Shown in pieces: positions 14,468-40,523 of a stretch of 64,000 bases of DNA; positions within the stretch are counted from its first letter, which is position 1; each line of letters begins with the position of its first letter. The DNA is from an uncultured bacterium. GTDB lineage: Bacteria; Verrucomicrobiota; Verrucomicrobiia; Limisphaerales; J093. A program made the translations under genes and the position numbers. The notes beneath the pieces were generated by a model. It searched no databases, had not been told where the DNA came from, and saw nothing but the letters and a program-made list of their open reading frames with translations. The stretch spans positions 100,696-164,695 of the forward strand of contig CAVTMT010000009.1 in NCBI GenBank assembly GCA_963735925.1, given 5' to 3'.

Positions 14468-15046
14468 TCAATCGTGTCCGCAACCACAGGCCACCCTCAC
14501 CGGCGAGGCGGAGTCCAGTCCGCGCACGAACTCGAGCCGCCAGGTGCCGTCGTCGAGCTGCTGCGTCTGGCTCGTGAAACCCTGGGCGCGCAGCTTGGCG
14601 TAGAGCGGGACCGGCTCGAAGGGCACGAGCAGCACGAGGGATTGGCCGGGGGCGACGCTCGCGACGGCGGCATCGATGGCTTCGCAAGGCGTCTCCCCGC
14701 GCGCGAAAATGGGGCGCACATCCAGCACGACGGGCGCGGCGGCGCGCGCCGGGAGCGGTTCCGGCTTCGCCATTTTGGCCGCGGGCACGTAACCGGGGTC
14801 GGCGAACCGGCCCTTGGTGATCCGCACCCGCCACGTTTCGGGGCCTTGTTCGAGGTATTCCCACCGAAACGTCCCGCCGTGCTCGCACGCGAATTGGTAG
14901 TACAGCGGCACGGGATCGTGGTCGTTGACCAACACCAGGGCTTCGCCCGCGGCGAGAGAGTTCCAGGTCGCGAAGATCGCCGCGTGCCGGTTTCGGGCCG
15001 GCAGGGCGCGGACATCGATCTCGCATTCGTTTGCGATTCCGTTCAT
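14468..15046 (-). CDS. DUF2249 domain protein (two tandem DUF2249-like halves)
   Basis: The two halves are IDVRALPARNRHAAIFATWNSLAAGEALVLVNDHDPVPLYYQ and LDVRPIFARGETPCEAIDAAVASVAPGQSLVLLVPFEPVPLY. Confidence 0.6.
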   Translation of the reverse strand: MNGIANECEIDVRALPARNRHAAIFATWNSLAAGEALVLVNDHDPVPLYYQFACEHGGTFRWEYLEQGPETWRVRITKGRFADPGYVPAAKMAKPEPLPARAAAPVVLDVRPIFARGETPCEAIDAAVASVAPGQSLVLLVPFEPVPLYAKLRAQGFTSQTQQLDDGTWRLEFVRGLDSASPVRVACGCGHD

Positions 15047-15148: not shown

Positions 15149-16972
15149 TTACTGCCAGATCATCTCGTTGACCGTCTTCCCGGCGGGGATGAAGGGCAGC
15201 ACGTGCTCGGTGTAGGGCGTGATCACGTCCAGGACGTACGGCTGATCGGAATCCAGCATCCGCTGGATGGCGGCGCGCAGGTCGCGGCGGTACATCACCC
15301 GCTCGCACGGGACGTTGAACGCCTTGGCGATCGCCACGAAGTCCGGATAGACCTGCTGACGCAGGTTGGGATCGCCCAGGTAGGTGTGGCCACGGTTGCC
15401 CTGGTAGAAGCGGTCCTCCCATTGCATCACCATGCCGAGGTGCTGGTTGTTCAGGATCATCGCCTTGGCGGCGATACCATCGATGTGCGCCATCGCCAGT
15501 TCCTGCACGTTCATCAGGAACGACCCGTCACCGTCGATGTCGATGACCTGCCGGTCCGGTCGGGCCACCTTGGCGCCCAACGCGGCCGGGTAGCCGAAAC
15601 CCATCGAGCCCAGCCCGGCACTGGTCACGAACTGGCGCGGCTCGTCGAACTGGTAGAACTGCCCCGCCCACATCTGGTGCTGACCCACGCCGGTGGTGAT
15701 GATGGCCTCGCCTTTCGTCAACTCGTACAGCGTGGCGATGGCCTCCTGCGGGAGCACCACCTGGCTGGCGTCGCCGCCCATGTGATCGCGCACGTGCTGG
15801 GACTTGAGCACTTCCTCGGTCAGGCGCCAGTTGAGCGGTGCCTTGGCCTTCAGTTCGGCGACGCGCTGTTGCCAGGCGGTGAATCGCTTCGCGACGGGCC
15901 GGTCGGCCAGGATGGCGTTCAGGCGGCCGAGCGCGTAGCGAATGTCGCTCACGATGGGCAGGTGGACGGACCGGTTCTTGTTGAGCTCCGAAGGGTCGAT
16001 GTCCACGTGCACGATGGTTCCGTGCTCGCAGAACTTGTCCACCTTGCCGGTGACGCGGTCGTCGAAGCGCACCCCGAAGGCCAGCAACAAATCGGCTTCC
16101 GCCACCGCCCAGTTCGCGTAGGCACTGCCGTGCATGCCCAGCCACTTGAGCGACAGCGGGTGCGTTTCCGGGAACGCGCCGCAGCCCATGATGGTGGTGG
16201 TCACCGGAATGCCGGTCGCATCCGCGAACTTCCGCAATTCCGCCGCGGACCCGCTGCTGAGGATGCCTCCGCCGCAGTACAGCACCGGACGCTCCGCGCG
16301 GTCGATCAAGGCGAGGATCTCGCCCAAGGCCGCGTCGTCCGCGCGCCGGTCCGGTTGGTAACCGCGCAGCGTGACTTCGGTCGGAAACACCGGTTGCGCG
16401 CGCTGCTGCTGCACGTTCTTGGGCACGTCGATCAACACCGGACCGGGCCGCCCCGATTGGGCGATGTGGAAGGCTTCCTTGACCACGCGCGGGATCGTGT
16501 GGATGTCCGTGATCAGATAACTGTGTTTCACGACCGGCAGGGTCATCCCGAAGATGTCCGTTTCCTGAAAGGCCCCTTTGCCGATCATGGCCTGCGGCAC
16601 CTGGCCCGTGATGGCGACCAGCGGGACTGAATCCATAAAGGCGTCGGCGATGCCGGTCACCAGGTTCGTGGCGCCGGGCCCGCTGGTGGCCATACAGACA
16701 CCGGCCTTGCCCGAGACGCGGGCGTAGCCTTCGGCGGCAAACACGCCGCCCTGCTCGTGGCGGGGCAGGTAGGTGCGGATCTGGCGCGAGCGGGTCAGGG
16801 CCTGGTGGATTTCCATGCTGGCGCCGCCGGGGTAGGCGAAAATGGCTTCGACGCCTTCGCGTTCGAGGCATTTCACCAGGATCTCGCTGCCCATCGGGGC
16901 GGCGCCGGCTTCGCCCACGGCGGCGGTCGCCGGCGGCGTGGTCTGGGGGTTCGCTTTCGTCGTTTTGCTCAT
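15149..16972 (-). CDS. ilvB: Acetolactate synthase (acetohydroxyacid synthase) large subunit
   Basis: It carries [47 protein letters not shown] and the ThDP motif [18 protein letters not shown]...[15 protein letters not shown]. The ATG at 16972 (MSKTTK) is preferred over the track start at 17020. Confidence 0.9.
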
Positions 16973-17004: not shown

Positions 17005-17042
17005 GTAACAAAAAACCCACGACTGGCGACCAGCCGTGGGTT
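17005..17042 (-). terminator. Intrinsic terminator/attenuator hairpin immediately upstream of ilvB
   Basis: The minus-strand RNA is AACCCACGGCUGG-UCG-CCAGUCGUGGGUU (13-bp stem with one G.U) followed by UUUUGUU. It lies 41 nt before the ilvB ATG. Confidence 0.6.
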
Positions 17043-17060
17043 CTTTGTTGAAATCTTGAG

Positions 17061-17141
17061 TCACGCCCAACAAAGCCCAGCGGCGACGCCGTGGCCTACG
17101 ACGACTACCAGCAGCAGGGCTTGTCGGACATTCACCGTCAT
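17061..17141 (-). CDS. Candidate ilvB leader peptide (26 aa, Leu/Val-rich)
   Basis: An ATG..TGA ORF encodes [26 protein letters not shown], with LLL followed by VVVV. It ends 18 nt before the terminator hairpin. Confidence 0.5.
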
Positions 17142-17674
17142 TTTGCGGAGCACAGCGTTAGCGGGTCCGGCACGGAGGTCAAGCCCACAATTGCGCCGGC
17201 TTCCGATCGCGTCACGATGGGCCAGGATGAAAGCCGAGGACGGCTGGACGACGGTGGTGCCTCCAATGGCATCGCATTGCCCAGACCTGCGCCTCGACGT
17301 CCAAACCCGACGCAATGAAAACCGATGCCCTGAGGGAATTGACGATGAGTACACCCGTATTCAGGAACCTCGCGAATTCGTGGGTTGCGGCTGAATAGGG
17401 GTCAGTTCTTGATATTGGTAATTGAGACTGAATGGGGGCACCCGCAATGGTCGGCAGGTTGAGGGTTGAACCTGTCGGCGAAGCGCCACGCTGCGCACCG
17501 CGTACATCGCGATAGCAAGTCATGTCAAGAGTATCCATTATCAAGAACCGACCCCTTTTCGGCGGCCATTCGGCGGCCAACAGGGCATCCCGACTTGGGC
17601 CGCGCTCCAAGGGTTTCTGCGCCAGCAATCGCGCTGAGCTGCTTCACCCAGGGAATTGGCGACGTGGAGGCAGG

Positions 17675-17905
17675 TCACAAGGTGTCGGCACTTTCGGAAT
17701 CAACGGGAACGAAATAGGTTTTCTCCGGGCAGGCGAGCAACCAGTCCACCAATCCTTCGTTGGCCGGCGGCGTGCGGCGCACCAGCCGGTACTCGCCCCG
17801 GTCCAGCCGCTCGATCTCGAATTCCTGGCCTGCCTCGAAGGCGTCCTGCAGATGGATTTCCACCGGCAGCACGATACGACCCTCCCTAGCAACGCTCGTT
17901 TTCAT
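17675..17905 (-). CDS. AbrB/MazE/SpoVT-family antitoxin (VapB-like)
   Basis: It has the SpoVT-AbrB N-terminus MKTSVAREGRIVLPVEIHLQDAFEAGQEFEIERLDRGEYRLVR and a tail NEGLVDWLLACPEK typical of this antitoxin family. The track start at 17914 is a TTG. Confidence 0.75.
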   Translation of the reverse strand: MKTSVAREGRIVLPVEIHLQDAFEAGQEFEIERLDRGEYRLVRRTPPANEGLVDWLLACPEKTYFVPVDSESADTL

Positions 17906-17944
17906 GATTGGCAAGTCACCCGCCTTGACGTAGTTCCTCGGTGG

Positions 17945-18109
17945 TCACTGTCGGTCGAATCCCTCCCGACCTTCGTCCAGAAGTCGCTCTAGTTCCTGCG
18001 TTGCGACGACTTCATTGAAAGCGTGTCCGGCCATGTTATTGAGAACTCGCTCCGCCAGTCGTACGCGTTGGGTCGAGGACACGCACGGTCCCGCGGGCAC
18101 ATCTTTCAT
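17945..18109 (-). CDS. Small ORF (54 aa), unknown function, possibly a DNA-binding ribbon-helix-helix-like protein
   Basis: It falls below the track cutoff and I found it by hand translation: MKDVPAGPCVSSTQRVRLAERVLNNMAGHAFNEVVATQELERLLDEGREGFDRQ. AGGA lies 6 nt upstream of the ATG, and the ORF starts 12 nt after the stop of the 301-aa gene. Confidence 0.3.
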   Translation of the reverse strand: MKDVPAGPCVSSTQRVRLAERVLNNMAGHAFNEVVATQELERLLDEGREGFDRQ

Positions 18110-18120
18110 CCTGTCTTCAT

Positions 18121-19026
18121 TCAGACACTCGCAGTCCCAGGGAATTCTGGATGGTTCAGTTGATTCTCGTGCTTGTGGACCTCGACAATGCAGTGCTCGG
18201 CTTTAAGCTCTCTGCCTTCCATCCACTGTCGAGTCCGCAACGTGACGTGCAGAATATCGCCCTTGCGGAAGGCTTCCGAGCCAGTGTTCACTTTCGCCAG
18301 GAACGCTTGGTCTTCGATACCTACCCAGAACGGACCAGTGCCGCCACTGACTTTCCACTTGTTTCCTTCGGAGAATGAGGGCGAAAGGAGTACCAGAATG
18401 GAATTCGGGTTTTCATGAACCTGCTCATTCTCGTTCCCTTCAGGAGCTTTGAAGTATGGCGCTTCCTCTTTGGTCACTTCGAGCACTCGTTTACCGTCCC
18501 TTTTCAGTTCCAACCGTTCGATTCCCTCGCGCTCCAGCGGACGAATGATCTGCTCAACGGATCTTCGCACGCCCGGATGACTAAACAAAGCCCACAACCC
18601 ATTTGGCACATCCGAAGGATCCTCCCCTTCGAATTGAATCCGTACCTTCTCTGAGCGCTCGATTTCCAGCACCTTTGGTTTCCGCGCCCTAGCGCGTTTG
18701 ATGAATTGGAGCAAGCCCCCCACTCCCGAAATGCCCAGCAAGGTGAACAATGCGTTCCATGCTTGGACATGACCGCCACTGAAGAGACCGACGAACTTGT
18801 CGTAAGCTTGCGCCAGTTCCAAGGTCACGTCGAACGAGCCTTTCCTGAAAGTCGGGCGCACCCTGATGGTAACTGCCGGAGCTTCAGGAAAGAGCACCTT
18901 ACCACCGAAATCGACCAAGTCAGCGAAGGCGATCAGCGCGGGTGCGAGGTCTCTGGCATCTATGGATCCGACGTCCAAGTCCTTTCCGTCGTAGATAAGA
19001 CTAAAAGCGAATTCGTCGTTGGCCAT
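18121..19026 (-). CDS. Hypothetical protein (301 aa), no family recognised, in low-GC island
   Basis: A long ORF with ordinary globular composition (MANDEFAFSLIYDGKDLDVGSIDARDLAPALIAFADLV...). The local GC is about 50%, against about 65% in the flanks. Confidence 0.6.
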   Translation of the reverse strand: MANDEFAFSLIYDGKDLDVGSIDARDLAPALIAFADLVDFGGKVLFPEAPAVTIRVRPTFRKGSFDVTLELAQAYDKFVGLFSGGHVQAWNALFTLLGISGVGGLLQFIKRARARKPKVLEIERSEKVRIQFEGEDPSDVPNGLWALFSHPGVRRSVEQIIRPLEREGIERLELKRDGKRVLEVTKEEAPYFKAPEGNENEQVHENPNSILVLLSPSFSEGNKWKVSGGTGPFWVGIEDQAFLAKVNTGSEAFRKGDILHVTLRTRQWMEGRELKAEHCIVEVHKHENQLNHPEFPGTASV

Positions 19027-19073
19027 TTCTTACCTTTCGCTTGCGACTGTTTGTTACCGAACCTCGTCGGACT

Positions 19074-19901
19074 CTACGCGAGGCCGTTGAGGTGCTTGAT
19101 CGACCGTTCCGCCTGCTCGATGGTGCCGCATTCGACGGACAGGACGATGTCGCGCGGGCAGTCTTCCCTTACGATCTCGATGACCTTTTTCCAATCCACG
19201 ACGCCATCGCCGCAGGCGCAGCCCACGGGCGTGCCGGTCACCTTGCCACGTTCGGCGGAGGCGTGCTCGACCGAGATGTCCTTGGCGTGGAGGTGGACCA
19301 GGCGCTTGACCACGCGCTTGAGCCACTTGATCGGATCGTGGCCGCAGAGGAAGGCGTTGCCGGTGTCGTAGTTGATGCCCACCGCCTGGCTTTTCACGAG
19401 CTTGTAGATGCGGTCCAGGCCTTCGGGCGTCTTGCTGTACTGCTGGTGGCATTCGAGGCCGAGCAGGATGCCGCGCGGTTCGGCGACCTTGGACGCCTCC
19501 ATGATCGTGTAACGCATCAGAGTGAAATCCTCGTCCTCGGTCGTCCACGGCTGCTTGGGGCCTTCGTCGGTGTTGACGACCGGAGCGCCGCACTCGGCGG
19601 CGAAGCGGATGGCCTGCTTGAGGTACTCGACGCCGATTTCGGGTTTGGTCAGCGGTGTGTGGGCGGACAGGCCGGACAGCTTGATGCCGGCCTGCTCGCA
19701 GGCGCGTTTGAGGCGGAGCGGGTCGTCGAGCATCGAGACGCTGTGGAAGTAACCGGCCTCGCTGAGGAGTTCGCGGCCCCAGTGGACCATCGGCTCGACG
19801 TGAGTGTAGCCGAGTTCGGCGGCCTTCTGGACGCCCCACTCGAAGTTTTTATCCGCGTGGCGGACGAATTCCATGTTAACGCCGAAATAGACTTTGCCCA
19901 T
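19074..19901 (-). CDS. Sugar phosphate isomerase/epimerase (xylose-isomerase-like TIM barrel)
   Basis: A 275-aa ORF: MGKVYFGVNMEFVRHADKNFEWGVQKAAELGYTHVEPMVHWG...LHAKDISVEH. Confidence 0.8.
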   Translation of the reverse strand: MGKVYFGVNMEFVRHADKNFEWGVQKAAELGYTHVEPMVHWGRELLSEAGYFHSVSMLDDPLRLKRACEQAGIKLSGLSAHTPLTKPEIGVEYLKQAIRFAAECGAPVVNTDEGPKQPWTTEDEDFTLMRYTIMEASKVAEPRGILLGLECHQQYSKTPEGLDRIYKLVKSQAVGINYDTGNAFLCGHDPIKWLKRVVKRLVHLHAKDISVEHASAERGKVTGTPVGCACGDGVVDWKKVIEIVREDCPRDIVLSVECGTIEQAERSIKHLNGLA

Positions 19902-20216: not shown

Positions 20217-21504
20217 TCAGATGACGATGTCCAGTTTGTCGGCGTCGAACGTGGCGACCTTTTTGTTCAGGAATGCGAGCATGGACATGTTCATCGCCGC
20301 CTGCACATACAGGCCGAACTCGACGTCGCTGACCGGCTTCTCCCGGGTGCGCACGCAATGCAGGAAGTTCTGCCAGTGCAGCAGCGTGGTGTTCGGCTTG
20401 CTGCCCGGAATGACCGTCTTTTCGCCTTTGCGCGGGATGAAGGTGACGCTGTCGAACCCACCCTCGAAGGCCGGACCTTGCATCGTGATGGTGCCTTCGT
20501 CGCCGCGAATCGCCGGGTCGGTGGGGAACTCGTTGGCGAGCGTGCAGACCAGAACGATCGAGAGCTTCTGCGGGTAATCGACGCACATGTTGAACGTATC
20601 CGGCACCTCGCGATCGTAGGTGTCGTACTTGAAGATGCCGCCGGAGGCGACCGCCAGCGACGGGAACTTCAGGCCCAGCAGGCTGATGAAGGGCGTGAGC
20701 ACGTGCGGGAACAGGTCGGTGCACGGGCCGCCGGCGTAGTCGAGGTATTTCCGCCAACTGAAGAACCGGTCCACCGTAAACGGCACCTTGGGCGCGTCGC
20801 CCGAGGAAGCCTTCCCAGTCGCAGTCCGGACCAGGCTTCGCGTTCGGGTCGGCGATCGGCATGCGCTCGCCCCAATCGCCGTAGCGATAATACCCGGCCT
20901 CGACGTGTTGCGGCCGGCCGATGGCGCCTTTCTGGATCAGGTCGCGCACCTGCTTCCAGGCGACGTTCGAGTTGCCCTGATTGCCGACCTGGACGACGCG
21001 CTTGAGCTTCACGGTCTCCTGGTAAAACTGCCGGCTGAGCGCGAACTGGCTCCAGTGGCCCATCGGCTTCTCGCAATAAACGTCCTTGCCGGCGCGAATG
21101 GCATCGATCGCCTGCGGGACGTGCAGCCGGTCCGGCGTGGCGATGAGGACCACGTCGATGGCGGGGTCCGCGAGGAGTTCGTGATAGTCCGCGTAGGCCT
21201 TGGCCTTGGCGTGCTCGGCGGCGGCGCGCTTGCGCGGGCCGTAGGTGTCGCTGAGGCCGACCACCTCGAGCGGCTCGCCCTGGTTGATCATGCCCAGGAC
21301 GACGTCGAGGTGGTAGCGGCCACGGCCGCCGACGCCGATGAAGCCGACGCCGAGCCGTTCGTTCGCGCCCAACACGGAGCGGCTGGCGACGAACGGCGCG
21401 GCGACGAGGCCCAGCGCGGCGGCGCTGGAGGTGGTTTGGAGGAACTGGCGGCGGCTCACGGGAGAGCCTGCGCCACTGCCGGAATGGGAGTTCTCGGAGT
21501 TCAT
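20217..21504 (-). pseudogene. Gfo/Idh/MocA-family oxidoreductase with TAT signal, frameshifted near 20801-20803
   Basis: It has a TAT signal (SRRQFLQTTSSAAALGLVAAPFVA) and a Rossmann motif (LGVGFIGVGGRGRYH). The N-terminal part ends ...DWEGFLG. The C-terminal part continues in the ORF 20217..20786 (..APKVPFTVDRFFSWRKYLDYAGG..). One extra G in a GGG run restores the frame if removed. Confidence 0.8.
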
Positions 21505-21616: not shown

Positions 21617-22390
21617 TCACTGCCCGCCAACGTCCGGCTTCAGCCACGGCGTGCCGGACCAGAACCATTTCCGCGGCTGGAGACTCTCGACGTGGCCGTC
21701 CACGAAGGCGATGGCACTGCGACCGCCATGCCGCGGGTGCGGCCCGCCCCAGTTCGGGTCGTCGGATGTAACCCCGCCGGTGTTGGGCGCGTCGTTGCCG
21801 GGGTCATGCACGATCCAGCACCCGGGTTTCTCGGGCGAGGTGTCGGTCACGCACTTGAGCGGGTCGGTGGTCCTCAACGGCTTGGTGCCGGCGTCGGTCA
21901 GATAGACCGTCGCGGTGGGCACGCGCACGGCGGCGTCGCGCACCGGCGGCCAGTCCTTCACGTCCCAGACGTTGGGCCAGTCGCAACCGCCGAGGCGGAA
22001 GTTCATGCCGTAATTGGAGATCGCCTTGTCGCCGGTGTCGCTCGGGTAGTTCTGGAGGAACTCCTTGAATTTGCGGCTGCGTACCGGGCAGAGGAGCAGG
22101 TTGGTCGCCTGCTGATAAGGTTGCAGGAAGTTGAACCAGGCCCGGCGCGTGACGTTGTTGCCGCGCACCTGGAACGTGAACGGGTAGCGCGCGTCGAAAT
22201 CGTCGCCGTACAGTTTCGTGGCGAGGGTCATCTGGCGGAGGTTGTTGACGCAGGCCGTGGCCTGGGCCTTTTGCTTGGCCTTGGCCAGGGCGGGCAACAA
22301 CATGCCGGCGAGGATGGCGATGATCGCGATGACCACGAGGAGCTCGATGAGCGTGAAACCCGCGAGCCCGGGTCGGTTGGGTGATTGCAT
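21617..22390 (-). CDS. DUF1559 / prepilin-type N-terminal cleavage-methylation protein (H-X9-DG)
   Basis: It has the N-terminus [29 protein letters not shown] and the C-terminus [17 protein letters not shown]. Confidence 0.85.
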
Positions 22391-37735: not shown

Positions 37736-39038
37736 ACTGGATGTACTGGTCCGCCTCCGGGCAGGCCAGAGCGCGCAAGTTCGCCGCGTCCCACTCGATC
37801 CGGCGGCCCAGGCGGTAGGCCACGTTGCCCAGCAAGGCGGCTTCGGTCAGCGCGCCCGAGTAATCGAAGTTGCAGGTGGTGGTGCCGCCGTTGCGGATGG
37901 CCTCGACCCATTCCTTGTGGTGGCCGATCGAGTCCGGGATGGTCTTGGGCGGCGCCTGGAACCCCTTGAACTTATCCTCCGGCAACAACTGTCGGCGGTC
38001 GTAATCCGCGAGCAGGTTGCCCTTTTCGCCCACAAACAACACCCCGCTCCGGAAGTACTGGCGCTGCTCGTCGTCGAGGAGCGGCGACGCCGGTTGTTTG
38101 CCGCCGTGATACCAGGTGAGCGCGACGGGCGGCAGCGTGAGACTCCCGATTTGCCGGGCCGGATAGCGGTAGCGGACGATCGCCCACGGCGGCGTGGAAT
38201 CGGGATGGACCGGCGGGCCGTCCACCGGCTCGACCCAGCTTGGCGCGCGGAGATCGAGCGCCCAGTGCGGCAGGTCCATGAAATGGCAGCCGAAATCCGC
38301 GATGGTGCCGCCGCCGAACGCCCACCAGTTGCGCCAGGCGAACGGCGCGTACTCCGGATGGTACGGGCGGAAGGGCATCGGCCCGATCCACAAATCCCAG
38401 TGCAAGCCCACCGGCACCGGCACCGTGCCCTTGGGCGCGTCTTTCCCGCCATAGACGGCCCCCACCCAGACGTGCACCTCGTTAACCGGTCCGATCGCCC
38501 CGCTCTGGATCAGCTCGACCACGCGGCGGTAGTTGCCACCGGCATGAATCTGGGTGCCCAACTGGGTCACGCGCTTCTCCTTCGCGGCCAGTTCGCGCAC
38601 CGCGCGGCACTCCGCCACCGTGTGCGTGAGCGGCTTCTCGCAATAGACATGGCGCCCGGTGCGCAACGCGGCGGCGGTGGCCACGGCGTGGGTGTGATCC
38701 GGCGTGGCCACCACGACGGCGTCGAGGTCCTTCTGGTCGATGAGCTGGCGGAAATCGTTGTAGCCTTTTGCGCCGGGATGTTTGAGCCGGGCCTGGGCCA
38801 GGAAATTGTCGTCCACATCGCAGAGCGCGGCGACATTCACGGCGTCGGTGAGCCGGGCGACCTCCTCGAGGTCCGCCGCGGCGCGGTTGGCGGTGCCGAT
38901 GAACCCAATGTTGAGTCTTTCGTTCGCGGCGGCGCGGCCGATCCGGATCAGCGGACCGGTGGCGGCGAGGCCGGTGCCGAACAACACGGACCGGCGCAGG
39001 AACTGGCGGCGATTCAAGGCGGTATTCATGGGCTTCAA
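37707..39038 (-). CDS. Gfo/Idh/MocA-family oxidoreductase with TAT signal
   Basis: It has NRRQFLRRSVLFGTGLAA and the Rossmann motif LNIGFIGTANRAAADL; 443 aa. Confidence 0.85.
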   Translation of the reverse strand: MKPMNTALNRRQFLRRSVLFGTGLAATGPLIRIGRAAANERLNIGFIGTANRAAADLEEVARLTDAVNVAALCDVDDNFLAQARLKHPGAKGYNDFRQLIDQKDLDAVVVATPDHTHAVATAAALRTGRHVYCEKPLTHTVAECRAVRELAAKEKRVTQLGTQIHAGGNYRRVVELIQSGAIGPVNEVHVWVGAVYGGKDAPKGTVPVPVGLHWDLWIGPMPFRPYHPEYAPFAWRNWWAFGGGTIADFGCHFMDLPHWALDLRAPSWVEPVDGPPVHPDSTPPWAIVRYRYPARQIGSLTLPPVALTWYHGGKQPASPLLDDEQRQYFRSGVLFVGEKGNLLADYDRRQLLPEDKFKGFQAPPKTIPDSIGHHKEWVEAIRNGGTTTCNFDYSGALTEAALLGNVAYRLGRRIEWDAANLRALACPEADQYIQYQYREGWKL

Positions 39039-39238
39039 CTAAGACCGAACCGGCACGGCTGTCGAGGCGAAACCTGGGCGGACTGGACGAAATGAGGGCG
39101 GAACCGCACCTTCAAGGGCTCTGGGCATATGAAAAGATTGACATCAACTTACGCCGGGGCACACTTTCCGCAGAAGTCAATATGGCCGGCGCGGAAACGT
39201 TCAGCATACCGCTCGCTTGACGATTGAAACCGTTCGGC

Positions 39239-39586
39239 ATGGCGCACATGAAGGGTTTCCACACATTCCATTGCGATTTTGGGCCGGCTACTTGTTCCAT
39301 TGAGTTCAGCGTATCTAAGGATTGCACCGGAGATCCGCCAAACCTCCGCCCGAAGGTAGTATGGACGGGCACGCGCACAGCGGAGATTTTTCCAGCTTAC
39401 CTGACTTGGATTCACACGGTGAACGCGGCCATCAGCAGAATGCTCAACCACCAGCACGCATATGTCATTCAGGACTGGTCTTCCGATCCAGCCCACTGGG
39501 AATTCTGGGTTTACGACCCCGACGGCAGCAAGAAGTGCGTCCAGTCTGGACATGGTAGGTTTGACAAGGGATGGCTTGGACGATGA
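39239..39586 (+). CDS. Hypothetical protein (about 115 aa), low-GC island
   Basis: The ORF reads MAHMKGFHTFHCDFGPATCSIEF...WEFWVYDPDGSKKCVQSGHGRFDKGW. The + strand is preferred over the overlapping - ORF 39149..39553 because it shares orientation with the next two genes. No family was recognised. Confidence 0.4.
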   Translation: MAHMKGFHTFHCDFGPATCSIEFSVSKDCTGDPPNLRPKVVWTGTRTAEIFPAYLTWIHTVNAAISRMLNHQHAYVIQDWSSDPAHWEFWVYDPDGSKKCVQSGHGRFDKGWLGR

Positions 39587-39638
39587 GCCGCCACGGGGAC
39601 GCTGCGGCGAACGTGCACCCCGTTTTTCACATTCCCTT

Positions 39639-39989
39639 ATGCACTACACCGCATCGCTTGTCTTCACACTCTTAATCGGCGGGTCGTTACTCTTTGAATG
39701 TGGTTGCGGTCGATCACGAACCAAGACTCAAGTGCGAGCCGAGGACTTTGGAGACCGGTGGCCTCTCACGGTACCCAGTGGCCACATCTACAAGCACGAT
39801 GCCTCGTACGGTCGGAGCCAAGTCATTTTCGTTGCGCCAGATGGCAAGAAATACGGACTCAACGGGACGGCTCAGAGCGCTGGTTATCGCGACATTCACC
39901 AGATTACGAAATTCGAGAGTACTTCCTATGGTCGGAGATACGAAGATGTTAGTGAACTCATCAGCCTCGGTCTCTCTGACATCAAGTAG
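39639..39989 (+). CDS. Small secreted/lipoprotein-like hypothetical (DUF2511/YebY-like by weak resemblance)
   Basis: It has the N-terminal hydrophobic segment MHYTASLVFTLLIGGSLLFECGCG, followed by WPLTVPSGHIY...YGLNGTAQSAGY. Confidence 0.45.
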   Translation: MHYTASLVFTLLIGGSLLFECGCGRSRTKTQVRAEDFGDRWPLTVPSGHIYKHDASYGRSQVIFVAPDGKKYGLNGTAQSAGYRDIHQITKFESTSYGRRYEDVSELISLGLSDIK

Positions 39990-40160
39990 CACCATTTGAG
40001 TTGTGAAGCCCCAAAGCGTTCAAGCGCTCCCAAATGACGCGCTGGAAAGCAAGTGCTGGCCCTTCTCCGGCAAATGCCGGGCGGCCGTTCGATAGCGCTT
40101 TGCGCGCTCTACCGTCACTGCCTGCCTCAGCCGCTCACCTCTGACATTTGGCGAAACCGT

Positions 40161-40523
40161 ATGCTGTGTCATCAAGACGTGATTAGTATTGACGAATACC
40201 TTGCAGGCTTGAGCGAGGACCAACGAGCCGCGCTGGAGAGCCTGCGGCAGACCATCCGGGCGGTGACGCTCAAGGCGGAGGAGCGCATCAGTTACCAACT
40301 CCCGGCTTTTCGTCTCAACGGAAAGCTGCTGGTGGCCTTCGGCGCGACCGCGAATCACTGCGCCTTTTACCCCATGAGTGCTTCCACCGTGGCGGTCCAC
40401 CAGGACGCGCTCAAGGACTACCCCACCAGCAAGGGCACCATCCGCTTCCAACCGGACCATCCGCTGCCGGCCGCCCTGGTGCGGAAGTTGGTCAAGGCCC
40501 GGATTGCGGAGAACGGCGGTTGA
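40161..40523 (+). CDS. DUF1801 (YdhG-like) domain protein
   Basis: The sequence is IDEYLAGLSEDQRAALESLRQTIRAVTLKAEERISYQLPAFRLNGKLLVAFGATANHCAFYP...GTIRFQPDHPLP. Confidence 0.65.
   Translation: MLCHQDVISIDEYLAGLSEDQRAALESLRQTIRAVTLKAEERISYQLPAFRLNGKLLVAFGATANHCAFYPMSASTVAVHQDALKDYPTSKGTIRFQPDHPLPAALVRKLVKARIAENGG

Follow-up and report, generated by a model that had tools for sequence, protein, structure and literature searches.

A probable MichelleMyBell gp29-family gene beside a decayed vapBC locus in the genome of an uncultured verrucomicrobial bacterium

Gene content and composition of the low-GC patch

The DNA analysed here is a stretch of 64,000 nucleotides (nt), called the window in the following, from an uncultured bacterium of the Limisphaerales (Verrucomicrobiota; contig CAVTMT010000009.1 of assembly GCA_963735925.1, positions 100,696 to 164,695 of the forward strand). 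All coordinates refer to this window unless another locus is named. It contains a patch of low guanine plus cytosine (GC) content with three open reading frames (ORFs) on the minus strand: a gene for a protein of 301 amino acids (aa), a 54-codon ORF and vapB, which encodes an antitoxin. An earlier reading of the letters without database searches, here called the sequence-only reading, had compared this arrangement to toxin-antitoxin (TA) or abortive-infection cassettes and had proposed the 301-aa protein as a candidate novel effector. According to our analysis the 301-aa gene is a horizontally acquired further member of a known defence family with an unsolved mechanism, and not part of a new three-gene system. 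Table 1 gives an overview of the features of the patch and of its borders.

Table 1. Features of the low-GC patch and its borders, with the basis of each assignment
Feature	Position	Strand	Basis
gp29-like gene, 301 aa, LAPAL / PDC-S42 / MichelleMyBell gp29 family (probable), intact	18121..19026	-	Hidden Markov model (HMM) matches, hhalign, invariant residues, GC
Low-GC cargo found in the window only: gp29-like gene plus 216 nt with the 54-codon ORF	17906..19073		Isomerase stop to vapB start
54-codon ORF, doubtful coding status	17945..18109	-	Homology searches, AlphaFold2 model, codon-position GC
vapB, 76-aa AbrB/MazE-type antitoxin, orphan	17675..17905	-	Homologues, PF04014
vapC (PIN) toxin stub, GTG plus about 12 codons	17641..17678	-	DNA homology to the vapBC genes of locus L089
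pfkB-family kinase remnant, last 18 codons, convergent	17572..17625	+	tblastn with PfkB of locus L089
180-bp element, 32-nt imperfect inverted-repeat ends, adjoining the pfkB remnant	17387..17566		Repeat search, fold
Native ilvB leader (putative attenuator): Leu/Val-rich leader peptide and terminator hairpin, native edge of the patch	17005..17141	-	Sequence reading, weak Rfam match
Xylose-isomerase-like TIM-barrel gene, native flank, GC content at third codon positions 0.88	19074..19901	-	PF01261 7.3e-29

The three minus-strand ORFs are present as claimed before, with 12 nt between the 301-aa gene and the 54-codon ORF and 39 nt between the latter and vapB. The start of the 54-codon ORF 12 nt past the previous stop codon and the AGGA upstream of it were likewise borne out. 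The GC content of the window is about 0.66, compared to 0.54-0.55 between positions 18001 and 19000. Within this patch the 301-aa gene has a GC content of 0.541 (z = -4.0 against the mean of 906-nt windows, of which 0.24% are equally low), and the only other comparable low-GC patch of the window lies at 38.9-40.5 kb. Its GC content at third codon positions (GC3) is 0.62 versus 0.88 in the flanking ilvB and isomerase genes. Windowed and codon-position GC thus confirm the low-GC island, and the deviation of both values supports the proposed foreign origin of the DNA.

The patch had been placed between the control region of ilvB and a sugar-isomerase gene. Both flanks exist, but the isomerase is rather a xylose-isomerase-like TIM-barrel protein. 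No tRNA gene was found in the window, and no phage genes lie beside the 301-aa gene, which is flanked by genes for a thiamine pyrophosphate (TPP) enzyme, the TIM-barrel isomerase, an oxidoreductase and an extracytoplasmic function (ECF) sigma factor.

The 301-aa protein and its family

Profile searches revealed full-length matches of the 301-aa protein to curated family models. The PADLOC model PDC-S42 (PDLC05015) matched with 4.5e-72 (residues 6-295 on positions 4-298 of 302 of the profile). NF053583 (LAPAL_fam), an NCBIfam equivalog model described as 'LAPAL motif-containing putative phage structural protein', matched with 226.9 bits, the curated cut-off being 60 bits (residues 8-287 on positions 1-291 of 292). 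A third full-length match was obtained to phrog_3243 (5.7e-56), a family of unknown function. The sequence-only reading had recognised no motif in the protein; a DLAPAL motif is nevertheless present as D26-L27-A28-P29-A30-L31. In an alignment of 58 sequences L27 and A28 of this motif are invariant, and D26, P29, A30 and L31 are kept in at least 90%. Together with R154, P163, F218, W224, D239, F253 and D257, the two motif residues make up the invariant positions of the alignment, and all nine are found in the 301-aa protein. The search for homologues yielded 75 proteins, the closest of which are 59-65% identical if the identical copy of the source genome itself is left aside. Matches to DUF7946 (Pfam, E 0.26) and to a holin PHROG (E 0.088) were below significance and were rejected as identities of the protein.

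The only family member for which experiments are described is gp29 of the mycobacteriophage MichelleMyBell (genome KF986246). This protein comprises 310 aa and also passes NF053583 (181.4 bits; rounded scores 227 and 181 bits for the window protein and gp29, respectively), and it matches PDC-S42 with 1.6e-16. An hhalign comparison of the family profile with gp29 gave an end-to-end alignment over 270 columns (probability 98.9%, E 1.7e-17). Based on these profile comparisons the 301-aa protein almost certainly belongs to the LAPAL / PDC-S42 / MichelleMyBell gp29 family. The predicted effector is consequently a member of a known family and not a novel one.

In the MichelleMyBell genome gp29 is followed by a 67-aa ORF, gp30, which overlaps the 3' end of gp29 and whose product shows two long hydrophobic stretches resembling transmembrane (TM) segments. 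Both genes are placed between the lysis genes and the integrase gene. The primary paper on this prophage defence (DefenseFinder system MMB_gp29_gp30) is reportedly that of Dedrick et al. 2017 (Nat Microbiol 2:16251). The gp29 protein has been described as toxic and gp30 as a putative membrane protein, the mechanism being unknown (PMC11856565), and the phenotype of the gene pair is typical of abortive infection (PMC6426606). On lysogens of MichelleMyBell phage Tweety plates 4-5 orders of magnitude less efficiently, a defence that is counteracted by gp54 of Tweety (PMC8549241). The window gene resembles gp29 not only in length and profile matches but also as a low-GC accessory gene outside the structural genes. 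It differs from gp29 by an identity of only about 20%, by another host phylum and by the lack of a gp30-like partner with two TM segments as well as of a prophage lysogeny module (neither phage genes nor a tRNA gene). Furthermore, most of the LAPAL family (the PDC-S42 clade) appears to consist of single genes.

One family thus carries three labels: the PADLOC candidate PDC-S42, the NCBIfam 'putative phage structural protein' and the DefenseFinder-style MMB_gp29_gp30__gp29. The last one appears as an annotation note on a Vibrio phage homologue, and we take it to be the name of a DefenseFinder model. No paper reconciling these labels was found, and literature searches for PDC-S42, the LAPAL motif, DUF7946, NF053583 and phrog_3243 yielded nothing relevant. 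The PDCs are 145 PADLOC candidates that were nominated for being embedded in BREX, DISARM or type I restriction-modification (RM) loci (Payne et al., bioRxiv 10.1101/2024.01.29.577857); the available part of the supplement text of that paper does not mention PDC-S42. The window copy agrees with PDC-S42 in its full-length HMM match and in the single-gene architecture, which is upheld by the neighbourhood analysis described below, but it is not embedded in a BREX, DISARM or type I RM locus. Linking the three labels provides indirect experimental backing for PDC-S42 and suggests that the NCBI name is misleading.

This name implies an alternative in which the 301-aa gene encodes a structural or morphogenesis protein of a phage and is left over from a degraded prophage, without a role in defence. 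The score of the window protein is far over the cut-off of NF053583, and the DLAPAL motif is kept. The genomic position of the family in phages is at odds with the label. Among 50,697 phage records, members were found in five phages only, all of them temperate, and each time in the lysogeny module and not in the structural block. ORF19 of Lactobacillus A2 lies between lysin and int, ORF27 of Listeria vB_LmoS_188 and the Bifidobacterium PMBT6 homologue adjoin int, and the homologue of a Vibrio element is two genes away from int. In MichelleMyBell and four other temperate phages the family gene is located between the lysis genes or the repressor gene and the integrase gene.

Relatives were also detected on at least 103 contigs of IMG/VR. 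For 55 non-redundant viral loci the nearest ORFs on each side were scanned (first 148 ORFs), and the resulting counts, like those for the genomes, are approximate because the ORF caller was crude (a length x GC-frame-bias heuristic). The most common neighbours were HTH_3 proteins (14), S24 repressor peptidases (10) and HTH_31 proteins (6), followed by RecE, YdaT, CII, CI and integrase with 3-5 each. A minority of the 148 ORFs belongs to Mu-like morphogenesis families (Phage_tail_S 5, Mu_F 4, Mu-like_Pro 3), which would favour a structural role. The 138 relatives in genomes show a patchy distribution over Pseudomonadota, Actinomycetota, Acidobacteriota, Negativicutes, phyla of the candidate phyla radiation (CPR), Bacteroidota, Planctomycetota and one Aenigmatarchaeon. 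Their neighbours are heterogeneous, as 145 ORFs match 154 Pfam families, none of which occurs in more than three neighbours, and many copies are solo genes amid housekeeping genes. The family gene is lower in GC than its locus, usually by several points, in 51 of 55 viral cases and in almost every genome locus.

The position in lysogeny modules, the repressor and HTH neighbours, the low GC content and the heterogeneous genome contexts argue against the label 'structural protein'. The MichelleMyBell member is moreover described as a toxic protein and defence component (PMC11856565), and the window copy has no flanking phage genes. A structural relic is therefore the reading to which we give hardly any credence. 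Instead, the findings on the family agree with a mobile accessory element that consists of a single gene and stems from the immunity regions of prophages. A comparable setting is known from phage lambda, whose exclusion genes rexAB belong to the immunity region of the prophage; the lysogen expresses them, and they make infection by other phages abortive. Members of the LAPAL family in phages likewise adjoin a CI-type repressor or integrase gene, but there is no relation to rexAB in sequence or fold, and the copy in the window lies outside a prophage.

The family was also searched for a gp30-like or another small conserved partner. Small ORFs on the same strand just downstream of the family gene were present in 75/161 cases versus 82/161 in the antisense control, with no conserved family among them, and TM-bearing downstream ORFs were found at 12/88 loci versus 9/88 in the control. 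A conserved small partner was rejected for lack of enrichment. As the family mostly occurs without gp30, one may ask how a toxic protein is kept silent on its own.

The 54-codon ORF, the orphan vapB and the history of the locus

The 54-codon ORF gave no match at E<=0.1 in Pfam, NCBIfam, PHROG or PADLOC. A phmmer search of 1.84e9 proteins returned a single match (E 9.5e-5), which falls on a repeat in a coiled-coil protein, and hence no credible homologue. By tblastn neither the 54-aa nor the 76-aa product was found at 84 loci, on the contigs of the four closest homologues or at 80 viral loci, and the DNA similarity to the closest relatives stops at the borders of the 301-aa ORF. The product had been suggested to be ribbon-helix-helix-like. 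This identity was rejected, since AlphaFold2 predicts a single helix (residues 12-52, pLDDT 90) and no family matched.

The ORF could nevertheless encode a genuine partner of the gp29-like protein, specific to the lineage, which would act as a functional analogue of gp30, i.e. as its neutraliser or regulator. The two would then form a new two-gene variant of the gp29 system, in which a soluble helical peptide instead of a membrane protein restrains the toxin. The ORF holds the relative position of gp30 directly after the gp29-like gene, it is preceded by a Shine-Dalgarno-like AGGA, and it occupies most of the 216 nt of cargo following the gene. Its GC content at the three codon positions (0.75/0.42/0.58) shows a weak coding-like periodicity with the low second-position value typical of coding DNA, but 54 codons are too few for composition statistics. 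Similarly, the helix is modelled with confidence, but AlphaFold2 often renders arbitrary amphipathic sequences as helices. Unlike gp30 the product is hydrophilic and lacks a TM segment, no credible homologue exists among the proteins searched, and the family shows no enrichment of small ORFs downstream. We consider both a partner role of the ORF and such a two-gene variant unlikely; the 54-codon ORF is probably a bystander and not a conserved partner.

For vapB, more than 3600 homologues were found. Of these, the 120 best ones listed, not counting the source genome's own annotation, are about 68-79% identical, mostly 76 aa long, and most of them contain PF04014. A close homologue (P0079) reaches 28.2 bits against a Pfam cut-off of 24.7, whereas the window VapB remains below Pfam reporting. 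The annotation of vapB in the source genome (P0076, 65 aa) begins at an internal GTG, 11 codons late; most of the listed homologues are 76 aa long, and their alignment starts with the ATG at 17905. In three look-ups a PIN gene (135-138 aa), the start of which overlaps the vapB stop by 4 nt, was the partner wherever DNA downstream of vapB was present. The window gene is 72-79% identical to VapB proteins with this arrangement, and the window keeps the GTGA overlap, in which the GTG of vapC and the TGA of vapB share 4 nt. On loci L096-L101, genes for PSD/PSCyt-domain and DUF4159 proteins are located beside close vapB relatives.

The earlier observation that no intact toxin follows the antitoxin was correct, as only about 13 codons of vapC are left. 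The stub VTCLHVANSLGEAA corresponds to V(T/I)YLVDANVLSEAT of VapC, and comparison with VTYLVDANVLSEAT shows Val in place of the conserved Asp of the N-terminal LVDANVL motif. Thus, in contrast to functional type II VapBC modules, no TA function remains. The stub became visible only when the sequences were compared directly and the DNA was aligned to L089, the closest vapBC contig; tblastn with four VapC proteins detected no PIN remnant in the window. DNA homology to vapBC of L089 stops at 17641. In L089 497 nt separate the vapC and pfkB homology blocks compared to 18 nt in the window, which corresponds to a deletion of about 480 bp. The pfkB remnant was identified by tblastn with PfkB of L089 (13/18 identical, E 6.9e-4 over the whole window), and its DNA is 81% identical to L089 over 52 nt. 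The assignment of an AbrB-type antitoxin was right in so far as the protein is a VapB. It is, however, no cassette partner but the survivor of an unrelated vapBC module, and the orphan vapB is a stranded bystander from a decayed vapBC-pfkB locus.

The other border of the patch was compared with 80 metagenomic loci carrying orthologues of the isomerase gene (78-92% identity). In none of them does the 301-aa gene, vapB or ilvB occur within 6 kb. In the best one (L103) collinearity with the window extends from about 22.3 kb to the isomerase stop codon, and the two are unrelated beyond. L089 retains 75 nt from the 3' end of the isomerase gene. After these come a Schlafen/AlbA_2 gene, a gene for a 270-aa protein of unknown function (GC 0.554) and then vapBC and pfkB. 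Within positions 70-2787 of L089, the Schlafen/AlbA_2 gene and the 270-aa gene take the slot that is held by the gp29-like gene in the window. A clean empty site was not present among the 80 isomerase loci, which provide the synteny break at the isomerase stop as evidence in addition to the alternative cargo of L089, and the exact pattern of the ilvB attenuator had no match in metagenomes. L089 and the window thus share both flanks, namely vapBC and the 3' end of the isomerase gene, but differ in the low-GC cargo between them. The isomerase-vapB interval is therefore a cargo-swapping hotspot, and it provides a small, well-delimited example of such swapping in two related genomes. A DUF6932 gene preceding the cargo in L089 matches the PADLOC candidate PDC-M63A, and DUF6932 and PDC-M63 also occur beside LAPAL genes in other genomes.

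These comparisons bear on the idea of a single cassette, in which the 301-aa gene, the 54-codon ORF and the AbrB gene would have co-evolved as one TA or abortive-infection unit, the small DNA-binding proteins controlling a novel effector. The co-orientation and tight spacing of the genes, the AGGA before the 54-codon ORF and its weak codon periodicity are compatible with such a unit, and a small ORF also follows gp29 in MichelleMyBell. But neither of the small genes is found beside any of about 170 relatives of the 301-aa gene, including those with 61-65% identity. The vapB gene is part of another and widespread kind of module, vapBC, in which its partner is a PIN gene, and the flanks are shared with L089, where they surround other cargo. 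The GC3 of vapB (0.75) differs from that of the 301-aa gene (0.62), and the 54-codon ORF has neither a credible homologue nor a predicted fold beyond one helix. A co-evolved three-gene cassette is therefore very improbable. What stands of the sequence-only reading is the connection to defence, because the 301-aa protein belongs to a defence-associated family, while novelty and the three-gene cassette are unsupported.

Our preferred reading is that of a cargo gene beside a decayed locus. Temperate phages would normally carry the family gene in their lysogeny or immunity region, with expression from the prophage. One copy, stripped of phage genes, would have come to lie between the isomerase gene and a vapBC-pfkB locus of older date, which would later have lost almost all of vapC and pfkB. 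The patch is probably a scarred variable spot and not a system, with the gp29-like gene as its sole functional-looking element. Among the elements of the patch only the 301-aa gene has a supported defence role.

Predicted structure and action of the 301-aa protein, and adjoining features

The AlphaFold2 model of the 301-aa protein (pLDDT 84.6, pTM 0.69) consists of four parts. An N-terminal strand and a long helix with the DLAPAL motif are followed by a conserved Gly-rich hydrophobic helix pair with a subsequent KRxKGRK motif, a middle alpha/beta domain and a C-terminal beta-barrel. Foldseek revealed no match to the whole protein in the PDB, nor did a sequence-profile search of the PDB give a match. 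The C-terminal barrel resembles OB folds (Foldseek probability 0.95-1.0, E ~0.02), and in BFVD four uncharacterised phage proteins were the only matches at E <= 0.001. The peak Kyte-Doolittle hydropathy over 19 residues is >=1.6 in 32 of 58 members, mostly at the central segment. These values are borderline for a constitutive TM helix.

By analogy to its homologue, the 301-aa protein is probably a single-polypeptide abortive-infection protein that becomes toxic when triggered by an infecting phage. The OB-like barrel with the invariant residues W224, D239, F253 and D257 may sense a phage component, whereupon the Gly-rich hydrophobic segment and the KRxKGRK patch (about aa 85-118) might act at the membrane. 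Action directed at the membrane fits the fact that MichelleMyBell gp29 is toxic and paired with a membrane protein with two TM segments. Judged from the model, such a mechanism is a tentative proposal that we would not put ahead of others. In a broader reading, which we consider unlikely, solo LAPAL proteins would be self-contained abortive-infection effectors with a membrane-inserting segment of their own.

Several points weigh against this picture. The similarity of the barrel to OB folds is weak at E ~0.02, and charged residues break the hydrophobic segment in many members, so that it may be buried in the fold. MichelleMyBell gp29 works with gp30, whereas no gp30-like gene lies beside the window copy; activity and self-control of the solo copy are consequently assumptions. 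With about 20% identity to gp29 in the hhalign comparison the function of the 301-aa protein may have diverged. Experimental support in the LAPAL family is limited to the actinobacterial gp29, the details of which come from secondary sources (PMC11856565, PMC6426606, PMC8549241), and PDC-S42 is one of PADLOC's 145 candidates by nomination (bioRxiv 10.1101/2024.01.29.577857). In addition, no promoter-like site was found for the 301-aa gene.

The missing promoter-like site would also suit an intact-looking but silent relic without present function in a decaying junction. The surrounding 1.5 kb are full of gene wrecks (the vapC and pfkB remnants), and the oxidoreductase gene nearby is frameshifted. 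Yet the full-length ORF keeps every invariant and nearly invariant residue of the family. It has a plausible ribosome-binding site, and read-through from the isomerase gene 47 nt upstream is possible. We regard a silent relic as rather unlikely and, arguing from the characterised homologue, moderately favour a role of the 301-aa gene in defence in the source genome.

The locus alone has little weight, being a further instance of an accessory gene that is widespread, here next to a dead TA module. The family, however, is far wider than mycobacteriophages, as the 138 genome matches across many phyla and the viral contigs demonstrate. If solo LAPAL proteins are self-contained effectors, a defence validated for one mycobacteriophage would extend to many bacterial phyla and to at least one archaeal phylum.

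Adjoining the pfkB remnant, the 180-bp element has inverted-repeat ends that are 84% complementary and a predicted fold of -85.2 kcal/mol (z = -5.2). It lies 5 nt from the truncation point of the remnant. No second copy was found in the window or in 2.66 Mb of fetched loci, and a repeated miniature inverted-repeat transposable element (MITE) was rejected for this single-copy sequence. The element may represent either a structured RNA or a scar of the MITE type.

Upstream of ilvB, the leader region encodes a leader peptide of 26 letters. Behind it come a GC-rich hairpin and a T-run, shortly before position 16972, where ilvB probably starts. A match of the Rfam His_leader type (17007-17146, 29 bits, E 0.04) is below the gathering threshold. 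We regard the leader, from its sequence features, as a putative attenuator. The small regulatory subunit gene ilvN usually follows ilvB; directly downstream of the acetolactate-synthase-type (TPP enzyme) gene, a tandem DUF2249 protein is encoded instead (14468-15046, minus strand).

On the other side of the patch, a Gfo/Idh/MocA oxidoreductase gene (20217-21504, minus strand; twin-arginine translocation (TAT) signal, Rossmann N-domain and C-domain) is split into two frames with a break near 20786-20800. The orthologue in L103, the closest relative, is a single frame, and the split points to a frameshift pseudogene or else to an error of the assembly. A gene for a protein with an N-terminal methylation motif and DUF1559 is located at 21617-22390 (minus strand). 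The second low-GC patch (38900-40500, GC 0.54-0.56) contains an ORF at 39462-39989 (plus strand) whose product has no Pfam match but shows a hydrophobic stretch with a subsequent Cys, similar to lipoproteins, and a DUF1801 gene at 40053-40523 adjoins this ORF.

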